Of a DNA stretch of 64,000 nucleotides, positions 40,743-47,995 are shown piece by piece (the stretch's first letter is position 1; the number at the start of each line of letters is the position of its first letter). This DNA comes from a virus (Duplodnaviria; Heunggongvirae; Uroviricota; Caudoviricetes). The notes below the pieces were generated by a model. That model did not search any database. It had not been told where the DNA came from and was given only the letters and a program-made list of their open reading frames with translations. The stretch lies in IMG/VR virus record IMGVR_UViG_3300042154_004306, one strand, 5' to 3'. The position numbers and the translations under genes were made by a program.

Positions 40743-40943
40743 ATGGAAATCAAATTTTATTGGAACGGAAGTTTTGCTGGAACTAATCACAGTATGACAA
40801 TAAACGGAAAGAATATTAGATTAGGTGGTATTGTTTCAAATGAAAATGAAGCAAAACTGAAAGCAGTTGAGATATTGAAGCAAGATTATGAAATTGACTA
40901 TAATGTTGATGAAATAAAATTTGAGTGGGGTGGTCGTTTATAA
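40743..40943 (+). CDS. small hypothetical protein (cassette-region ORF)
   Basis: 66 aa; followed by hairpin element at 40948. Confidence 0.4.
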   Translation: MEIKFYWNGSFAGTNHSMTINGKNIRLGGIVSNENEAKLKAVEILKQDYEIDYNVDEIKFEWGGRL

Positions 40944-40947
40944 TGTT

Positions 40948-40997
40948 TTATAACGATTACAAATAAAACATCGTTTTAATGTGTTTTATTTGTTGTT
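40948..40997. repeat. hairpin element, ATCGTTTTAATG-loop subtype
   Basis: ttataacgatt-ACAAATAAAACA-tcgttttaatg-TGTTTTATTTGT-tgttataag. Confidence 0.6.
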
Positions 40998-41042
40998 ATA
41001 AGTATGTAAAACAAAAATTATACAAATTAAAAGAAATAAATT

Positions 41043-41231
41043 ATGAAAACATTATTAAGTAGAGTAGAAGAAGAAAGTGTTAATTATGCAACAGCAGAAC
41101 ATGCAGCGATAGACCATTTAAAAATGGCATCTGCACATTTATTTGAAGAAACAGAAGGTAGAGACATTGATAATTGGTTATCAGATATTGAAAAAATAAT
41201 TCAAAAACTTGAGAACAGAATAAACTCATAA
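41043..41231 (+). CDS. small hypothetical protein
   Basis: 62 aa. Confidence 0.4.
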   Translation: MKTLLSRVEEESVNYATAEHAAIDHLKMASAHLFEETEGRDIDNWLSDIEKIIQKLENRINS

Positions 41232-41312
41232 TTTTTGTTTTATTACTTATAACGGTTTGCAGCTAACCGAAGGCGGTGATTTAATAGATAAATTAACTTA
41301 AAAGAATATAAT

Positions 41313-41531
41313 ATGAATGAGCAATTAACTATCAAAAAAGCACGAAACCACCGCTTTTGGTTAGGTGGTGTTATGTGCCGTTTATTCCATTACATAAGAA
41401 CTATTGAAGAGTGTAAATTCATTGATAGAGTTGATGGAAGAGAGGTAGGGCAATTTGAATGTGTAAAGTGTGGAACTAAATTTATGGCTAATAAAAAGCG
41501 AAGTTGGTTTCGTGTCTATAATGGCACATAA
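41313..41531 (+). CDS. small zinc-ribbon protein
   Basis: 72 aa, CVKCGTKF. Confidence 0.4.
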   Translation: MNEQLTIKKARNHRFWLGGVMCRLFHYIRTIEECKFIDRVDGREVGQFECVKCGTKFMANKKRSWFRVYNGT

Positions 41532-41580
41532 CGGTTGAGTGTAAAAAATCGTTTTAATGTTTTTTACACTTTGTTATAAA
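41521..41580. repeat. hairpin element, ATCGTTTTAATG-loop subtype
   Basis: cacataacggttgag-TGTAAAAAA-tcgttttaatg-TTTTTTACA-ctttgttataa. Confidence 0.6.
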
Positions 41581-41604
41581 TATGTAAAACTAAAATTATA
41601 CAAT

Positions 41605-41757
41605 ATGAAAAAATACTTTATTAAACAAGAATTGATGTGTGGTGAAGTTTATCACATGATATATGTAAGATGGTTTGGATTATTTGAATCATTTTATGAA
41701 AGGTGGAATACTTATGAAACATCGAAAATAAGACTGAACGAATTAAACAATTCATAA
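41605..41757 (+). CDS. small hypothetical protein (start at MKKYFIKQ)
   Basis: Trimmed from track ORF 41557, whose 5' part lies in the hairpin element. Confidence 0.35.
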   Translation: MKKYFIKQELMCGEVYHMIYVRWFGLFESFYERWNTYETSKIRLNELNNS

Positions 41758-41773
41758 TTTTAGTTTTATTATT

Positions 41774-41850
41774 TATAACGTTTTGCGTATAAAAGAAAGC
41801 TACGAAGCAGAGCCTTTAGCGTTGGGTAGCTTTCTTTTATACGCTGTTAT
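41774..41850. repeat. hairpin element with 19-bp perfect stem
   Basis: ataacgtttt-GCGTATAAAAGAAAGCTAC-loop-GTAGCTTTCTTTTATACGC-tgttatc. Confidence 0.7.
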
Positions 41851-41894
41851 CGGATGCCCTTTCAATGAATTATTAAATTAAAAACAGACACAAA

Positions 41895-42284
41895 ATGAAC
41901 AGACAAATTAAATTTAGGGCTTGGGATAAAACATACAGCCTAATGAATTACAAAGTGCAAGTTGGCAATACTGACCTCGCAGACCCCAATTACACTTGCA
42001 ATAGCATTTGGGTTGATAGTGGTGATTTTGTAACTATTGGATGGATGAATGCTGATGAAAATTGTATTGACCTTATGCAATTTACTGGATTGAAAGATAA
42101 GAATGGCAAGGAAATTTATGAGGGTGATTTAGTTCAGCACGATGCTTGGAACTATCCATTTGAAGTAATTTTCAATGATGAAAAAGCAAGGTTTGTTTGC
42201 AAGTTACAAACGGGATTAACTCAATACATAGATTGTGAAAGATTGGTTGTTGTCGGTAACATTCACGAAACGGTATCTGCTTAG
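41895..42284 (+). CDS. YopX-family phage protein
   Basis: 129 aa. KFRAWDK ... QFTGLKDKNGKEIYEGDLV ... VVGNIHE matches the YopX domain. Confidence 0.7.
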   Translation: MNRQIKFRAWDKTYSLMNYKVQVGNTDLADPNYTCNSIWVDSGDFVTIGWMNADENCIDLMQFTGLKDKNGKEIYEGDLVQHDAWNYPFEVIFNDEKARFVCKLQTGLTQYIDCERLVVVGNIHETVSA

Positions 42285-42393
42285 GGTTGCCGATAACGAC
42301 TGCAAATATACAACGTTTTTTTGTAGAAAGTTTCAAATTAATTTTTTTTTTTGATAAAAATGTGGTATATTTGTTGTTATAAAACGGTTAGAT

Positions 42394-46088: not shown

Positions 46089-46121
46089 CAGTACGGATTA
46101 TTAATATAAAACTTAAATAAA

Positions 46122-46373
46122 ATGGAAAAGAAAATCGAAAACATTGAGGATATATATCCTTTGACCATAGTGAAAATGCGTTATGGTGGAAAAATTGTAA
46201 TCTTCAACGCTGATAATGATGCGGGATTTGTTGATTCTGTACAAGGTGATGAAGAAGTTTATTATATCATTAATGACTGGTTAGAAGAACATGTATCACC
46301 TTGCTTGTATGGTATTGGCGACACAATTTGGTCAGCATTTGAAGATTACAAAAAACGTTTATATAAGTACTAA
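46122..46373 (+). CDS. small hypothetical protein
   Basis: 83 aa. Confidence 0.4.
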   Translation: MEKKIENIEDIYPLTIVKMRYGGKIVIFNADNDAGFVDSVQGDEEVYYIINDWLEEHVSPCLYGIGDTIWSAFEDYKKRLYKY

Positions 46374-46386
46374 CGTAGTATTGTTG

Positions 46387-46480
46387 GTAACGTTTTGCGT
46401 ATATACGAGGTACGCCTTAACGAAAATTTTAAATTATAAACAAATGCTTGTAGGTGTATCTTGTATATACGCTGTTAGCA
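46387..46480. repeat. hairpin element
   Basis: ggtaacgttttGCGTATATACGAGG-loop-CTTGTATATACGCtgttagca. Confidence 0.65.
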
Positions 46481-46499
46481 GTATGTAAAAATTACGGAT

Positions 46500-46700
46500 A
46501 TGGAAAACAAATTAAATTACAAAGAGTGGGAAAATAAGTATTTTGAAAAGTTAACACACGATACTTGGACATCAATTTATGAAAAAGTAGAAATTGGATT
46601 CGCACCATCAGATTTATCACATTACAGTAAAAAAGACTTAAAAGAGTGTTATTCAAAATACTTAGATGGAACGGAAGATTTTCTTAAATACGAAGAGTAG
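46500..46700 (+). CDS. small hypothetical protein
   Basis: 66 aa. Confidence 0.4.
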   Translation: MENKLNYKEWENKYFEKLTHDTWTSIYEKVEIGFAPSDLSHYSKKDLKECYSKYLDGTEDFLKYEE

Positions 46701-46714
46701 TAATTTTTATTACT

Positions 46715-46808
46715 GCTAACGGTTTGCGTATATGAGAAGTGGCACTTGTAGAATGTTGAATTTTAGCACAAATGTTTATGTGCCATTTCTTATATACGCT
46801 GTTAGCAC
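46715..46808. repeat. hairpin element with 20-bp stem
   Basis: gctaacggttt-GCGTATATGAGAAGTGGCAC-loop-GTGCCATTTCTTATATACGC-tgttagca. Confidence 0.7.
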
Positions 46809-46869
46809 CAGTACGGTTTATTTAGCAGAATTTTAAAATTTGAATATTTATATATAAAATAAAAGGCAA

Positions 46870-47286
46870 ATGGAATTGAGAAAATTTATAAAAACCACCA
46901 TCAAAGAATACTTAAATGAACAAGTAAAAAATGATGGTTATATTTATCACGGAACTGGTAAAGGACAAGCAATGAATATACAGAACGATGGATATATGAA
47001 ACCAAATAGAACTGGTGAAGAGCAACCATCAATTAGTTTCACAAATGATTTAGACTATGCTAAATACTATGCAAAATCAAAGGGTGGAATTAGTAAAATG
47101 TGTATTTTAAGAACAAAATTGACTGATGATTATCAACTATCACCAAGAATAGTGAACAATAAAGGGGATGAATATATTACGTTTAAGCATGTACCATCAT
47201 CAGATTTGGAAGTAATGACTATGGGGGGTGGTTGGCAACCATTAGATAGTTGGAATGTAATCTTTGATGAACCATTAAATGCTTAA
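46870..47286 (+). CDS. possible ADP-ribosyltransferase-fold protein (diphtheria-toxin-like / Tpt1-like YHGT motif)
   Basis: 138 aa. GYIYHGTGKGQAMNIQNDGYMKP resembles DT SYHGTKPGYVDSIQKG; downstream SISFT, YAKYY and GDEYITF may be STS-like, Tyr and catalytic Glu elements. Confidence 0.3.
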   Translation: MELRKFIKTTIKEYLNEQVKNDGYIYHGTGKGQAMNIQNDGYMKPNRTGEEQPSISFTNDLDYAKYYAKSKGGISKMCILRTKLTDDYQLSPRIVNNKGDEYITFKHVPSSDLEVMTMGGGWQPLDSWNVIFDEPLNA

Positions 47287-47350
47287 TCAAAGCACTTCCG
47301 TAGTATTGGTGCTAACGTCTGATGATAAACAATCGTTTTAATGTTGTTTA
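47285..47350. repeat. hairpin element, ATCGTTTTAATG-loop subtype
   Basis: ggtgctaacgtct-GATGATAAACAA-tcgttttaatg-TTGTTTATCATC-tgttatatg. Confidence 0.6.
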
Positions 47351-47404
47351 TCATCTGTTATATGAATGTGTTATTTTTGTTTTACCGATTAAAAAAATAA
47401 ATTT

Positions 47405-47779
47405 ATGGAAAAGAAAATTATTATTGATGGTGTTGAATATGAGTTAACACCTAAGAAAGTTTTAACAGATGAAGAATTTGTTAAGTGTGTTTTAGAAAAA
47501 CACAAAATTGACTTTAATGTTGATGATATTGTTTGGTATAAAGGAAAGAGTATTAGAAAAGAATGTGGAGAAACCAAATTCAAAGTATTATCAATTGATC
47601 CGTATTTAATTGATGGGATAAGAGTTGATAATTACCTAAATGTTAATTTAGAAAGTCTAACATCTGGTAATAAAGTTAGTTTCTTCACATCACATTTGGA
47701 AAAATATAGTGATAAAGATTTTGTTAAGGAAATTATGATTGATGGAGTTGATTATGAATTAATACCAAAACAAAAATAA
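47405..47779 (+). CDS. hypothetical protein with internally duplicated IDGVDYELTPK motif
   Basis: 124 aa. N-terminal IIIDGVEYELTPKKV and C-terminal IMIDGVDYELIPKQK. Confidence 0.45.
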   Translation: MEKKIIIDGVEYELTPKKVLTDEEFVKCVLEKHKIDFNVDDIVWYKGKSIRKECGETKFKVLSIDPYLIDGIRVDNYLNVNLESLTSGNKVSFFTSHLEKYSDKDFVKEIMIDGVDYELIPKQK

Positions 47780-47782
47780 CAT

Positions 47783-47995
47783 TTCATATAACGTTATCCA
47801 AATAAGCGCAGTTTAACTAAATTGATATTCACCTGTAGTTTAACGTGGTAAAACACAATGACGATTAAACCGCCTCATAAGACCAATAAAAATTGGAACA
47901 GCTTATGCGAGTTTAATAAGAGTAAGCAAGTTCGAGCCTTGCTGGGTGGACTAAAAATTGCGCTTATTTGGTGTTATGGCATCGTTTTAATGTGC
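47783..47995. repeat. large hairpin element (about 140-nt loop) with nested ATCGTTTTAATG hairpin, immediately upstream of the recombinase gene
   Basis: catataacgttatCCAAATAAGCGCAg (47783-) pairs with TTGCGCTTATTTGGtgttat (47951-); then ggc-atcgttttaatg-tgccataac. Confidence 0.55.

Follow-up and report, generated by a model that had tools for sequence, protein, structure and literature searches.

In integrons, a tyrosine recombinase of the Xer/IntI superfamily lies beside an array of mostly single-ORF (open reading frame) cassettes, whose recombination sites (attC) are imperfect palindromes with ...AAC/GTT... ends, conserved in structure and variable in sequence. A similar arrangement is found in a 64,000-nt stretch of a tailed phage (IMG/VR record IMGVR_UViG_3300042154_004306), referred to here, over its whole length, as the window: an array of small ORFs and covarying hairpins occupies about 40.7–48.0 kb of the + strand and abuts the gene of a tyrosine recombinase. 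With a probability of about 0.72, this locus serves a T4-like phage as an integron-like platform for gene capture, in the form of an accessory module (~40.7–49.1 kb). The platform is shared with hundreds of other, uncultured phages. It would function like an integron but is not a canonical member, as the IntI domain is absent, the R-box consensus is rarely matched, and the cassette orientation is reversed.

Integron parts have already been described in phages. Qi et al. (2023, PMC9892861) examined 10,705 phage genomes and found three canonical integrons in temperate phages and 17 small clusters of attC sites lacking integron-integrases (CALINs), with two or few attC sites and no integrase, and IntI1 recombined five of six tested phage attC sites (three virulent phages, including a Polaribacter phage). 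The window resembles these genomes in carrying attC-type sites; however, that work describes no arrays of ~20 cassettes with a dedicated non-IntI recombinase, and none in T4-like phages. Repeated stem-loops between small ORFans are known from the hyperplastic regions of T4-like phages as promoter-early stem-loops (PeSLs; Arbiol 2010, Comeau 2014), which are tied to gene gain, loss, and swapping, possibly through mini-circles. PeSLs are defined by a strong sigma-70 early promoter and a terminator, are scattered over several regions, and are driven by homology without a dedicated enzyme.

A search of the 64 kb with the pattern TAAC, a spacer of 0–6 nt, a stem of at least 10 pairs, 0–3 nt, and GTTA recovered 19 complete hairpins, all on the + strand between 40951 and 47976. 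Together with one 3'-half copy at ~40700–40727, the array comprises 19 complete units and a truncated one, while the remaining 56 kb hold about three weak matches. An ungapped stem search anchored directly at TAAC/GTTA misses nearly all copies because of a bulge on the 5' side. A covariance model of 53 homologous copies, run with filters off across all 64 kb, gave 12 matches on the + strand (E up to 0.71), all in 40944–47367, with scores far above those of the − strand (105.8 vs 34.6 bits); outside the array, no match was better than E = 0.45 and none was significant. In the alignment of the 53 copies, 15 of the 25 predicted pairs show compensatory changes, 98.9% of the cells at these pairs are paired (81.6% in shuffles and at most 57% in slid-partner controls), and double changes number 217 vs 67 in shuffles. 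The repeat family is therefore confirmed as real, strand-specific, and limited to this region.

These results bear out the inverted-repeat family and the covarying stems that a preliminary description, made from the letters of this DNA, had pointed out. It missed four copies (42294, 42601, 43346, the last of 313 nt, and 44954). The three copies at 41247, 43764, and 45673 that it took for 5'-only fragments are complete, with the 3' arm and TGTTA lying inside the downstream ORF (41250–41373, 43767–43895, and 45678–45801). The CGAAGGC core, described there as recurring, is present in five hairpin copies, and the ATCGTTTTAATG loop does occur in four, except that the hairpin at 47973–48000 has the opposite polarity (GTTA...TAAC).

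Several peculiarities of individual hairpins were also observed. In two of the five CGAAGGC-type hairpins (41250–41373 and 44645–44768), a second TAAC...GTTA pair is nested in the stem, as TAACCGAAGG...CTTTTGGTTA (41264–41363 and 44658–44758). The loop TCGTTTTAATG is found at 40970–40981, 41548–41559, 47330–47341, and 47979–47990, and also beside the recombinase in L016, L023, and L033 (L-numbers are locus labels); it occurs in both polarities, in TAAC...GTTA hairpins and in short GTTA...TAAC hairpins resembling empty cassettes. One hairpin class holds an ATG in its loop, and its 3' arm and GTTA core encode a conserved N-terminal peptide (43829–43900, 45016–45085, 45738–45805, and 58276–58340), so that the site doubles as coding sequence and provides a shared leader (...NLNISDV, ...LGISDV, or ...LNILAV) for unrelated protein bodies. 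A T-arm-like stretch within 47789–47976 is not a tRNA, and a CRISPR-like or tandem-repeat reading was rejected because the units are unrelated ORFs.

Each unit consists of TAAC, a bulge of 3–6 nt, the covarying hairpin (helix a), T-GTTA, a second helix arm (b), the ORF, the complementary arm b', and the next TAAC. The ORFs between 40.7 and 48.0 kb are all small and all on the + strand; none crosses a TAAC, and several take its TAA as their stop codon. The G+C content of the array is ~30%, compared to ~40% in the flanking DNA. Helix b, absent from the preliminary description, is a second set of inverted repeats that brackets every ORF: the sequence right after GTTA is complementary to that right before the next TAAC, and the pairing spans the ORF, as in 45079–45101 with 45320–45342 (23 nt, 96% complementary). 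For comparison, 206 relatives of the recombinase were identified in viral contigs, and 80 loci with recombinases 57–91% identical were retrieved, which gives 81 sequences together with the window. Among 317 units of these sequences, the anchored b/b' pairing score is on average 20.9 within a unit, but drops to 5.3 when the sequences on either side of one hairpin are paired and to 5.1 when partners are drawn at random.

The recombinase aligns end to end and colinearly with XerA (4a8e), and its scores with the NCBIfam models of XerA (176 bits, cutoff 220), XerD (139, cutoff 330), and XerC (135, cutoff 335) all remain below cutoff. The integron integrase model TIGR02249 matches in two stretches with 151 bits (cutoff 265) and PRK15417 with 101 (cutoff 435). 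By these scores, the protein is roughly as near to integron integrase as to the Xer proteins. The insertion specific to IntI is absent, with residues 179 to 211 (31 aa) facing residues 180 to 260 (79 aa) of VchIntIA (2a3v). Judged by its sequence, the enzyme is thus Xer/IntI-like and not an integron integrase. The comparison with integrons drawn in the preliminary description holds for the structured AAC...GTT sites, but not for the identity of the enzyme.

An attI-like junction lies directly in front of the recombinase gene. With few exceptions, the related loci show N-TAAC-TAT(T/C/A)ATATATA at 35–45 nt before the recombinase ATG. In the window, the TAAC of the fixed junction TAAC-TATNATATATA occupies 47997–48000, and the sequence to its left is variable across loci. 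Near-identical genomes (L026/L033, L028/L029/L030, and L073/L074) diverge exactly at this TAAC, and identical cassettes occur either at the junction or deeper in the array, so that TAAC-TATNATATATA looks like an attI-type site. In about 70 of the 80 loci, the array lies on the same strand, abuts the 5' end of the recombinase gene, and ends at this junction, and almost no hairpins are found downstream of the gene or on the other strand.

The phage backbone is T4-like, with topoisomerase II subunits, RNA ligases, a helicase, and a clamp-loader-like ATPase, and megablast of the region against GenBank phages gave no DNA match. In the closest sister, L163, the backbone is 95% identical and an array is present at the same place, with completely different cassettes. 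Two other sisters, L164 and L165 (80–90% identical), are devoid of everything from ~40.5 to 49.117 kb, and their backbone homology with the window resumes at 49117. The array, the recombinase, and a 60-aa ORF next to it thus form an accessory module (~40.7–49.1 kb) whose right edge is the terminator at 49117. The 60-aa ORF is kept beside the recombinase in L001 (98%), L002 (76%), and L053 (71%), and is absent along with the module from L164 and L165; it yielded no family match and no informative match in the searches, and could be an accessory factor. A clean empty site was not found in these sisters, which hold tRNA-like genes and a small ORF instead. The place of the module is taken in L165 (11585–11740) and L164 by a small membrane ORF together with one or two tRNA-like sequences, which makes the locus a general hotspot for variable content. 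A further 1.4 Mb of related phage loci, chosen via the neighboring RNA ligase, contain a single array, that of L163, whose contig ends inside it, and a single recombinase homologue above 30% identity, in L166, which is the same contig as L002 and has too little upstream DNA to show an array.

Exchange of cassettes is seen at the level of single units. Segments at least 93% identical and common to otherwise unrelated loci run from TAAC to the next TAAC(G). The clearest case is the cassette 44645–44957, which is 100% identical over 313–315 nt in L244, L247, and L248, starts at (A)TAAC, ends at TAAC(G), and has different flanks on both sides; it is found in at least five flanking contexts, always joined at TAAC, and an index of public assemblies lists its 49-aa protein in 143 blocks. 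Alignments between non-sister arrays gave 2742 ends. Those on the left cluster at TAAC, with offsets 0, −1, and −2 in 791, 377, and 202 cases, and none of them lies after GTTA; those on the right are at GTTA +0 to +3 or at the next TAAC. Each ORF therefore moves together with its upstream hairpin and not, as had been proposed initially, with the one that follows, and hairpin families are reused with many ORFs. Cassettes also change rank: one of 960 nt (99.9% identical) adjoins the attI-like site, as the final unit, in L003 but stands five units away in L011, two loci with recombinase sides 97% identical and a 1828-nt block 100% identical in both. The longest ORF of the + strand exceeds that of the − strand in 325 of 335 units, and ORFs read towards the recombinase gene. 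Most cassette ORFs of the window have no homologue in any retrieved locus, and 324 cassette proteins fall into 266 clusters, 223 of them singletons. A function can be assigned to one only, the YopX-family protein already recognized in the preliminary description. The modular gene exchange proposed there is well supported by the different array of L163, the identical cassettes in at least five contexts, the change of rank, and the fixed junction in ~70 of 80 loci; gene content and order are thus not the same in relatives.

Such turnover could also be produced by PeSL-type terminator/promoter units of a T4-like hyperplastic region, shuffled by homologous recombination, with the recombinase being unrelated. 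The T4-like backbone, the location in a hypervariable island of ORFans, the 80–100% conservation of hairpin families between phages, which might offer patches of homology, and the mini-circles of PeSLs documented in T4-type phages (PMC2839356) are all compatible with this explanation, which the preliminary description had kept as its alternative. However, the signature of PeSLs was not found. Sites resembling sigma-70 promoters are not enriched (40 vs 49.4 ± 8.1 expected), and neither is the Bacteroidota −7 motif TAnnTTTG, with 70 occurrences in the window (74.8 expected), three of them on the + strand of the array. What comes after the hairpins is GTTA(T/G)... and not a T-run, the only clear terminator being that at 49117. 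Moreover, breakpoints fall in a 4-nt core, also between otherwise non-homologous partners such as a hairpin and the attI-like sequence; the elements form a single array plus one orphan instead of being scattered over the genome; and they strictly co-occur with the recombinase. A PeSL origin is accordingly regarded as quite improbable.

The two strands of the array are not equivalent. When hairpins are detected by Watson–Crick pairs only, with symmetric settings, the internal non-Watson–Crick positions of helix a on the + strand comprise 715 G.T and 67 A.C, and those of helix b 258 G.T and 29 A.C, compared to a G.T:A.C ratio of ~1.3 predicted from base composition; two G.T positions are nearly invariant in the class-2 family. 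The unpaired spacer is one-sided (3–6 nt after TAAC vs 0–3 nt before GTTA), and the + strand folds better under DNA parameters. Because this foldable strand is also the mRNA strand in the phage, the phage data by themselves cannot decide between DNA and RNA. This leaves room for an explanation in which helices a and b are signals of mRNA processing, stability, or termination that bracket cistrons, DNA exchange being a by-product. It agrees with the strong preference for G.U-compatible pairs on the sense strand and with the span of helix b, which encloses each ORF, one arm lying shortly before the start codon and the other at the stop codon.

Bacterial relatives speak against it. Among 185,579 species genomes, homologues of the recombinase are no more than 50% identical over most of the protein, with the exception of one 2-kb fragment of a metagenome-assembled genome (66% over residues 85–268). 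Those compared here are 41–50% identical and also devoid of the IntI insertion. In nine bacterial loci, the recombinase is followed by an array of sites with the same geometry, TAAC-GTTYY-stem...T-GTTA, of the same size class (124–127 nt) and with common motifs such as GGTTGGGTGTATGAG and CGAAGG...CTTTTG, and their cassettes, which include an acyltransferase, a methyltransferase, and an AAA ATPase, have their own b/b' pairing. Unlike in the phage loci, the arrays lie downstream of the 3' end of the recombinase gene, the recombinases have an N-terminal extension, the cassettes are larger, and the ORFs have the canonical orientation, antisense to the foldable strand. Read on the ORF strand, these arrays show 43 A.C against 8 G.T, with the bulge on the 3' side. 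Since the same bias and bulge are found in sites antisense to ORFs, the strand preference belongs to the site and not to the transcript, which points to folded single-stranded DNA rather than mRNA as the probable substrate, like the bottom strand of attC. Signals acting in RNA only would, in addition, leave the TAAC-precise junctions, the conserved recombinase junction, and the identical cassettes in many contexts unexplained, and no Rfam family matches the hairpins (at gathering thresholds, the search returned six tRNAs, far from the array). This explanation is hence considered unlikely.

A tyrosine recombinase acting on a hairpin of one strand has a precedent in phage CTX-phi, where XerCD recombines the single-strand hairpin of attP(+) by one strand exchange that replication resolves. 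The pdif modules are likewise comparable, as genes bracketed by Xer sites in arrays, and the enzyme of the window is proposed by analogy to act in the manner of CTX-phi. However, those systems use the host XerC/D and a 28-bp dif-like duplex with two 11-bp arms, whereas the window element encodes its own recombinase, and a dif-like site (28–30 bp, inverted 11-bp arms, 6–8-bp center) was not seen: conservation at the foot of a hairpin covers only ~5–9 nt, and the flanks are cassette-specific.

The recombinase might instead be an ordinary lysogeny integrase with TAAC-TATNATATATA as its attP, the array being an unrelated moron region. Public (JGI) annotation names its homologues XerD, that is, XerD-type integrases, and in cultured flavobacterial phages, the Freya phages among them, related genes were originally taken only to indicate that the phages are temperate (PMC8776804). 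With a T4-like backbone, though, an integrase for lysogeny would be unexpected, and no prophages of the recombinase clade were seen among the 185,579 species genomes. The hairpins and the junction have the same TAAC core, at which cassettes join the junction. The cultured phages themselves are also at odds with this explanation. The Polaribacter phages Freya_1 to Freya_10 (genomes of 44.0–48.9 kb) encode a recombinase 36% identical to that of the window. Freya_1 and Freya_10 (loci L081, L249, L250, and L251) are 100% and 99.8% identical on the two sides of a 4921-nt block of 12 small ORFs, present in Freya_10 only and inserted at that very site, exactly at the core ...ACAAC|, between ...TTTACAAC| and the recombinase leader |ACCCCTATAAC..., directly upstream of the gene. 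At the beginning of the block stands a 124-nt hairpin with the geometry of the array hairpins, and others follow within it. All this makes a lysogeny function very improbable. More generally, in cultured flavobacterial siphoviruses (the Freya phages and Cellulophaga phage Ingeline_1, L082), the recombinases are 36–40% identical, the motif TTGTTGCTAACACCC(C/A)(T/C)ATAAC precedes the gene, and the difference between Freya isolates amounts to 0–4.9 kb of small ORFs and 124-nt hairpins, placed exactly at a ...YAAC| core beside the gene.

Hairpin-ended transposable elements (MITE, REP/RAYT, or IS200/IS605 type), for which another locus would supply a single-strand transposase, were also contemplated. 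Subterminal hairpins, strand bias, and insertion beside a short fixed tetranucleotide are features that recall IS200/IS605 biology, and the array shows all of them. Nevertheless, no ORF of the module holds an HUH or Y1 transposase domain, the tyrosine recombinase being the sole enzyme found, and the elements are confined to one array abutting its gene, so that hardly any weight is given to such elements.

Compared with canonical integrons, the likeness extends beyond the general arrangement. The structure of the sites is conserved while their sequence varies, both in the 19 sites of the window and in the 376 distinct ones (431 with repeats) of the 81 sequences. One strand folds better; a fixed site stands beside the recombinase gene on its 5' side, and cassettes attach to it through the core that they share with it; the beginning of every cassette can pair with a box at its own end; and the cassette pool is huge and mostly of ORFans. 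On the polarity of the foldable strand, the order of array, fixed site, and recombinase 5' end is the classical one. The differences are equally clear. Besides the absence of the IntI insertion and the integron-integrase scores below cutoff, RYYYAAC fits only 31 of the 376 sites at the 5' end and GTTRRRY 29 at the 3' end (8%), the consensus being (A/C)TAAC-G(G/T)TT ... T-GTTA(T/G), with ~5–9 nt conserved at each end. The bulge is one-sided instead of a roughly symmetric spacer with extrahelical bases, and the pairing of cassette ends reaches 10–25 bp past the core. In addition, the foldable strand is the coding strand of the ORFs, which point to the recombinase gene and are linked to the hairpin on their 5' side, the reverse of canonical cassettes. 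The array also resides in a T4-like phage and not in a chromosome, plasmid, or transposon of bacteria.

In the mechanism that we propose for this integron-like platform, a cassette is a folded site with the DNA 3' of it, C-(3–6 nt bulge)-stem a-loop-stem a'-T-GTTA-b-ORF-b'-TAA. The 268-aa recombinase is predicted to carry out strand cleavage and joining inside the TAAC that stands at the 5' base of every hairpin and, likewise, at the attI-like TAAC-TATNATATATA before its own gene, and cassettes would be excised as circles and then re-inserted. In such a circle, b' and b would be adjacent and form one long hairpin with TAAC/GTTA and stem a, which would account for the separate inverted repeat that encloses every ORF. 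The most likely substrate is folded single-stranded DNA of the + strand (the bottom strand in integron terms), subjected to a single strand exchange that replication would resolve. The cut at the 5' TAA|C would correspond to the G|TT point established for classical integrons (PMC9892861).

Several points weigh against this proposal. The recombinase has no counterpart of the insertion that contacts extrahelical attC bases in integrons, and catalysis, circles, and single-stranded intermediates are inferred from sequence. As the + strand is also the mRNA strand in the phage, the hairpins may have an additional RNA role in processing or stability. The same hairpin family often precedes unrelated ORFs, and many alignments stop at GTTA +0 to +3; for this reuse, a single crossover at TAAC would be insufficient, and the candidates are occasional exchange on the opposite strand at GTTA, concerted evolution, and another route of cassette genesis. 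Junctions are resolved to 4–5 nt, which makes the AA|C cut an assumption carried over from integrons. Finally, the link between arrays and recombinases in bacteria is drawn from their adjacency in only nine loci.

In a wider frame, a second lineage of integron-type gene capture is slightly favored, defined by short Xer-like recombinases without the IntI domain and by folded TAAC...GTTA sites of their own. One branch would be found in lytic Bacteroidota phages (at least 206 viral contigs and thousands of metagenomic homologues, annotated as XerD), shuffling a vast ORFan pool plausibly dedicated to host takeover or anti-defense, and another in the chromosomes of Flavobacterium, Desulfitobacterium, and Nitrospirae; the lineage as a whole could be a sister or a precursor of classical integrons. 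No description of such a platform was found in full-text searches of open-access papers and bioRxiv.

Should the mechanism prove right, phages would have an integron-type device of their own with which to acquire and rearrange small genes, beyond the occasional carriage of bacterial attC sites, and the rapid turnover of ORFans in large lytic phages, so far ascribed to homologous or illegitimate recombination, would have an enzymatic route. Recombination of folded hairpins would then not need the IntI-specific domain, which bears on the origin of IntI from Xer-like ancestors. The arrays flag a very large library of phage cassettes with boundaries readable from sequence, an entry point for genes of anti-defense and host takeover, and a compact recombinase with structure-defined sites could serve engineering. 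The Polaribacter phages Freya_1 to Freya_10, whose cassette blocks differ at the same kind of site, provide a cultured model. The recombinases are mis-annotated as lysogeny or XerD integrases, and the arrays appear to break assemblies.

Contigs often end in or beside the array (L001, L008, L014, L015, L018, L163, L164, and many P00xx), and most recombinase homologues are found on contigs of 1–5 kb. The repeated hairpins probably break short-read assemblies, with the consequence that the frequency and size of the arrays are underestimated. The features of the module and of related loci are collected in Table 1.

Table 1. Coordinates of the units of the array, the adjoining genes and signals, the orphan copy, and the bacterial arrays (positions in the window unless a locus label is given).
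Feature	Position	Strand	Characteristics
Truncated distal cassette	40673..40950	+	3' half of class-2 hairpin at ~40700-40727, ending ...TACACTTTGTTA; ORF 40743-40943
Cassette 1	40951..41249	+	48-nt hairpin 40951-40998, loop ATCGTTTTAATG; ORF 41043-41231; DNA fold z = -3.65; b/b' score 39
Cassette 2	41250..41528	+	124-nt CGAAGGC-type hairpin 41250-41373; ORF 41313-41531, start in loop, stop is TAA of next TAAC
Cassette 3	41529..41775	+	48-nt hairpin 41529-41576, loop ATCGTTTTAATG; ORF 41605-41757; b/b' score 39
Cassette 4	41776..42293	+	74-nt hairpin 41776-41849; ORF 41895-42284, YopX family (Pfam E = 4.4e-18)
Cassette 5	42294..42600	+	86-nt hairpin 42294-42379; ORF 42394-42603
Cassette 6	42601..42922	+	87-nt class-2 hairpin 42601-42687; ORF 42703-42912
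Cassette 7	42923..43345	+	126-nt CGAAGGC-type hairpin 42923-43048; ORF 43100-43348, stop is TAA of next core
Cassette 8	43346..43766	+	313-nt hairpin 43346-43658, loop with most of ORF 43352-43750; b/b' 43655-43675, 43750-43770
Cassette 9	43767..44180	+	129-nt hairpin 43767-43895, ATG in loop; ORF 43829-44167; ...NLNISDV from 3' arm and GTTA
Cassette 10	44181..44644	+	126-nt hairpin 44181-44306; ORF 44351-44635
Cassette 11	44645..44953	+	124-nt hairpin 44645-44768; ORF 44791-44940; best-documented boundaries of all cassettes
Cassette 12	44954..45338	+	129-nt hairpin 44954-45082, 26-bp stem; ORF 45016-45327 from loop; b/b' 23 nt, 96% complementary
Cassette 13	45339..45677	+	125-nt CGAAGGC-type hairpin 45339-45463; ORF 45489-45668
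Cassette 14	45678..45996	+	124-nt hairpin 45678-45801, ATG in loop; ORF 45738-45986; b/b' 45798-45814, 45984-46000
Cassette 15	45997..46387	+	88-nt class-2 hairpin 45997-46084; ORF 46122-46373; covariance score 105.8 bits
Cassette 16	46388..46716	+	90-nt class-2 hairpin 46388-46477; ORF 46500-46700
Cassette 17	46717..47312	+	88-nt class-2 hairpin 46717-46804; ORF 46870-47286, no family match
Cassette 18	47313..47788	+	48-nt hairpin 47313-47360, loop ATCGTTTTAATG; ORF 47405-47779
Cassette 19	47789..47996	+	188-nt hairpin 47789-47976; no convincing ORF
attI-like fixed junction	47997..48037	+	TAAC, then TATCATATATAAAC..., then recombinase leader
Tyrosine recombinase	48038..48844	+	268 aa; Pfam Phage_integrase and Phage_int_SAM_4
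60-aa ORF	48902..49084	+	travels with recombinase
Intrinsic terminator	49117..49142	+	right edge of accessory module; sole canonical terminator-like T-run site in region
Orphan cassette remnant	58250..58610	+	5'-truncated class-4 hairpin, GTTA 58335-58338; ORF 58276-58534; TAAC 58562-58565; decayed hairpin
Bacterial arrays	Desulfitobacterium L099 8981-16329; Flavobacterium L126 9862-12280, L160 10492-14403; Nitrospirae L085, L086; also L115, L123, L137		

The array begins immediately past the stop codon of a gene for a cREC_REC cyclic-phosphate-processing receiver-domain protein (40265–40672), and 40686–40757, in the truncated cassette, matches the 3' half of a hairpin and helix b in L074, L056, and L016. 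The hairpin of cassette 7 is 91% identical to L018 302–427, the match ending exactly at TAAC and GTTA, and cassette 8 is 94.8% identical to L050 8196–8521. For the ORF 46870–47286 of cassette 17, the candidate ADP-ribosyltransferase of the preliminary description found no support: searches of Pfam, PHROGs, and PDB sequences gave no match, and a single-sequence AlphaFold2 model (pLDDT 37.7) is too poor for use. Copies of cassette 18, 92–98% identical, are present in many loci, with similarity beginning at 47312 or 47313. Cassette 19 is followed by a short hairpin, GTTA-TGGCA-TCGTTTTAATG-TGCCA-TAAC (47973–48000), which amounts to an "empty" helix b, and the same empty b-type hairpin stands beside the junction in L016, L023, and L033.

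The orphan remnant, 10 kb from the array, encodes a small membrane protein and retains a 24-nt b/b' inverted repeat (58335–58358 / 58542–58565). Its segment 58254–58346 is 83–86% identical to array hairpins of L013, L041, L048, and L052, and 78% identical to 45718–45802 of the window. In L244 and L248, a cassette of this type is followed by the intact form of the decayed hairpin (TAAC-tgtca-GCTACAAGCA...TGCTTTGTAGC-gcaa-GTTA).

Just upstream of the array, at 30408–31484 and 37247–40672, lie genes resembling those of RNA repair, including two RNA ligase homologues (phrog_562 and phrog_968) and the cREC_REC protein, and six tRNA genes are found further upstream, at 23573–23658 and 27714–28571. 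Two other stretches of low G+C content, 14001–16000 (0.31) and 58001–60000 (0.29), hold no TAAC...GTTA array; the latter contains small ORFs, the orphan cassette, and short direct repeats (such as 59589–59612, 59915–59938, and 60254–60277).

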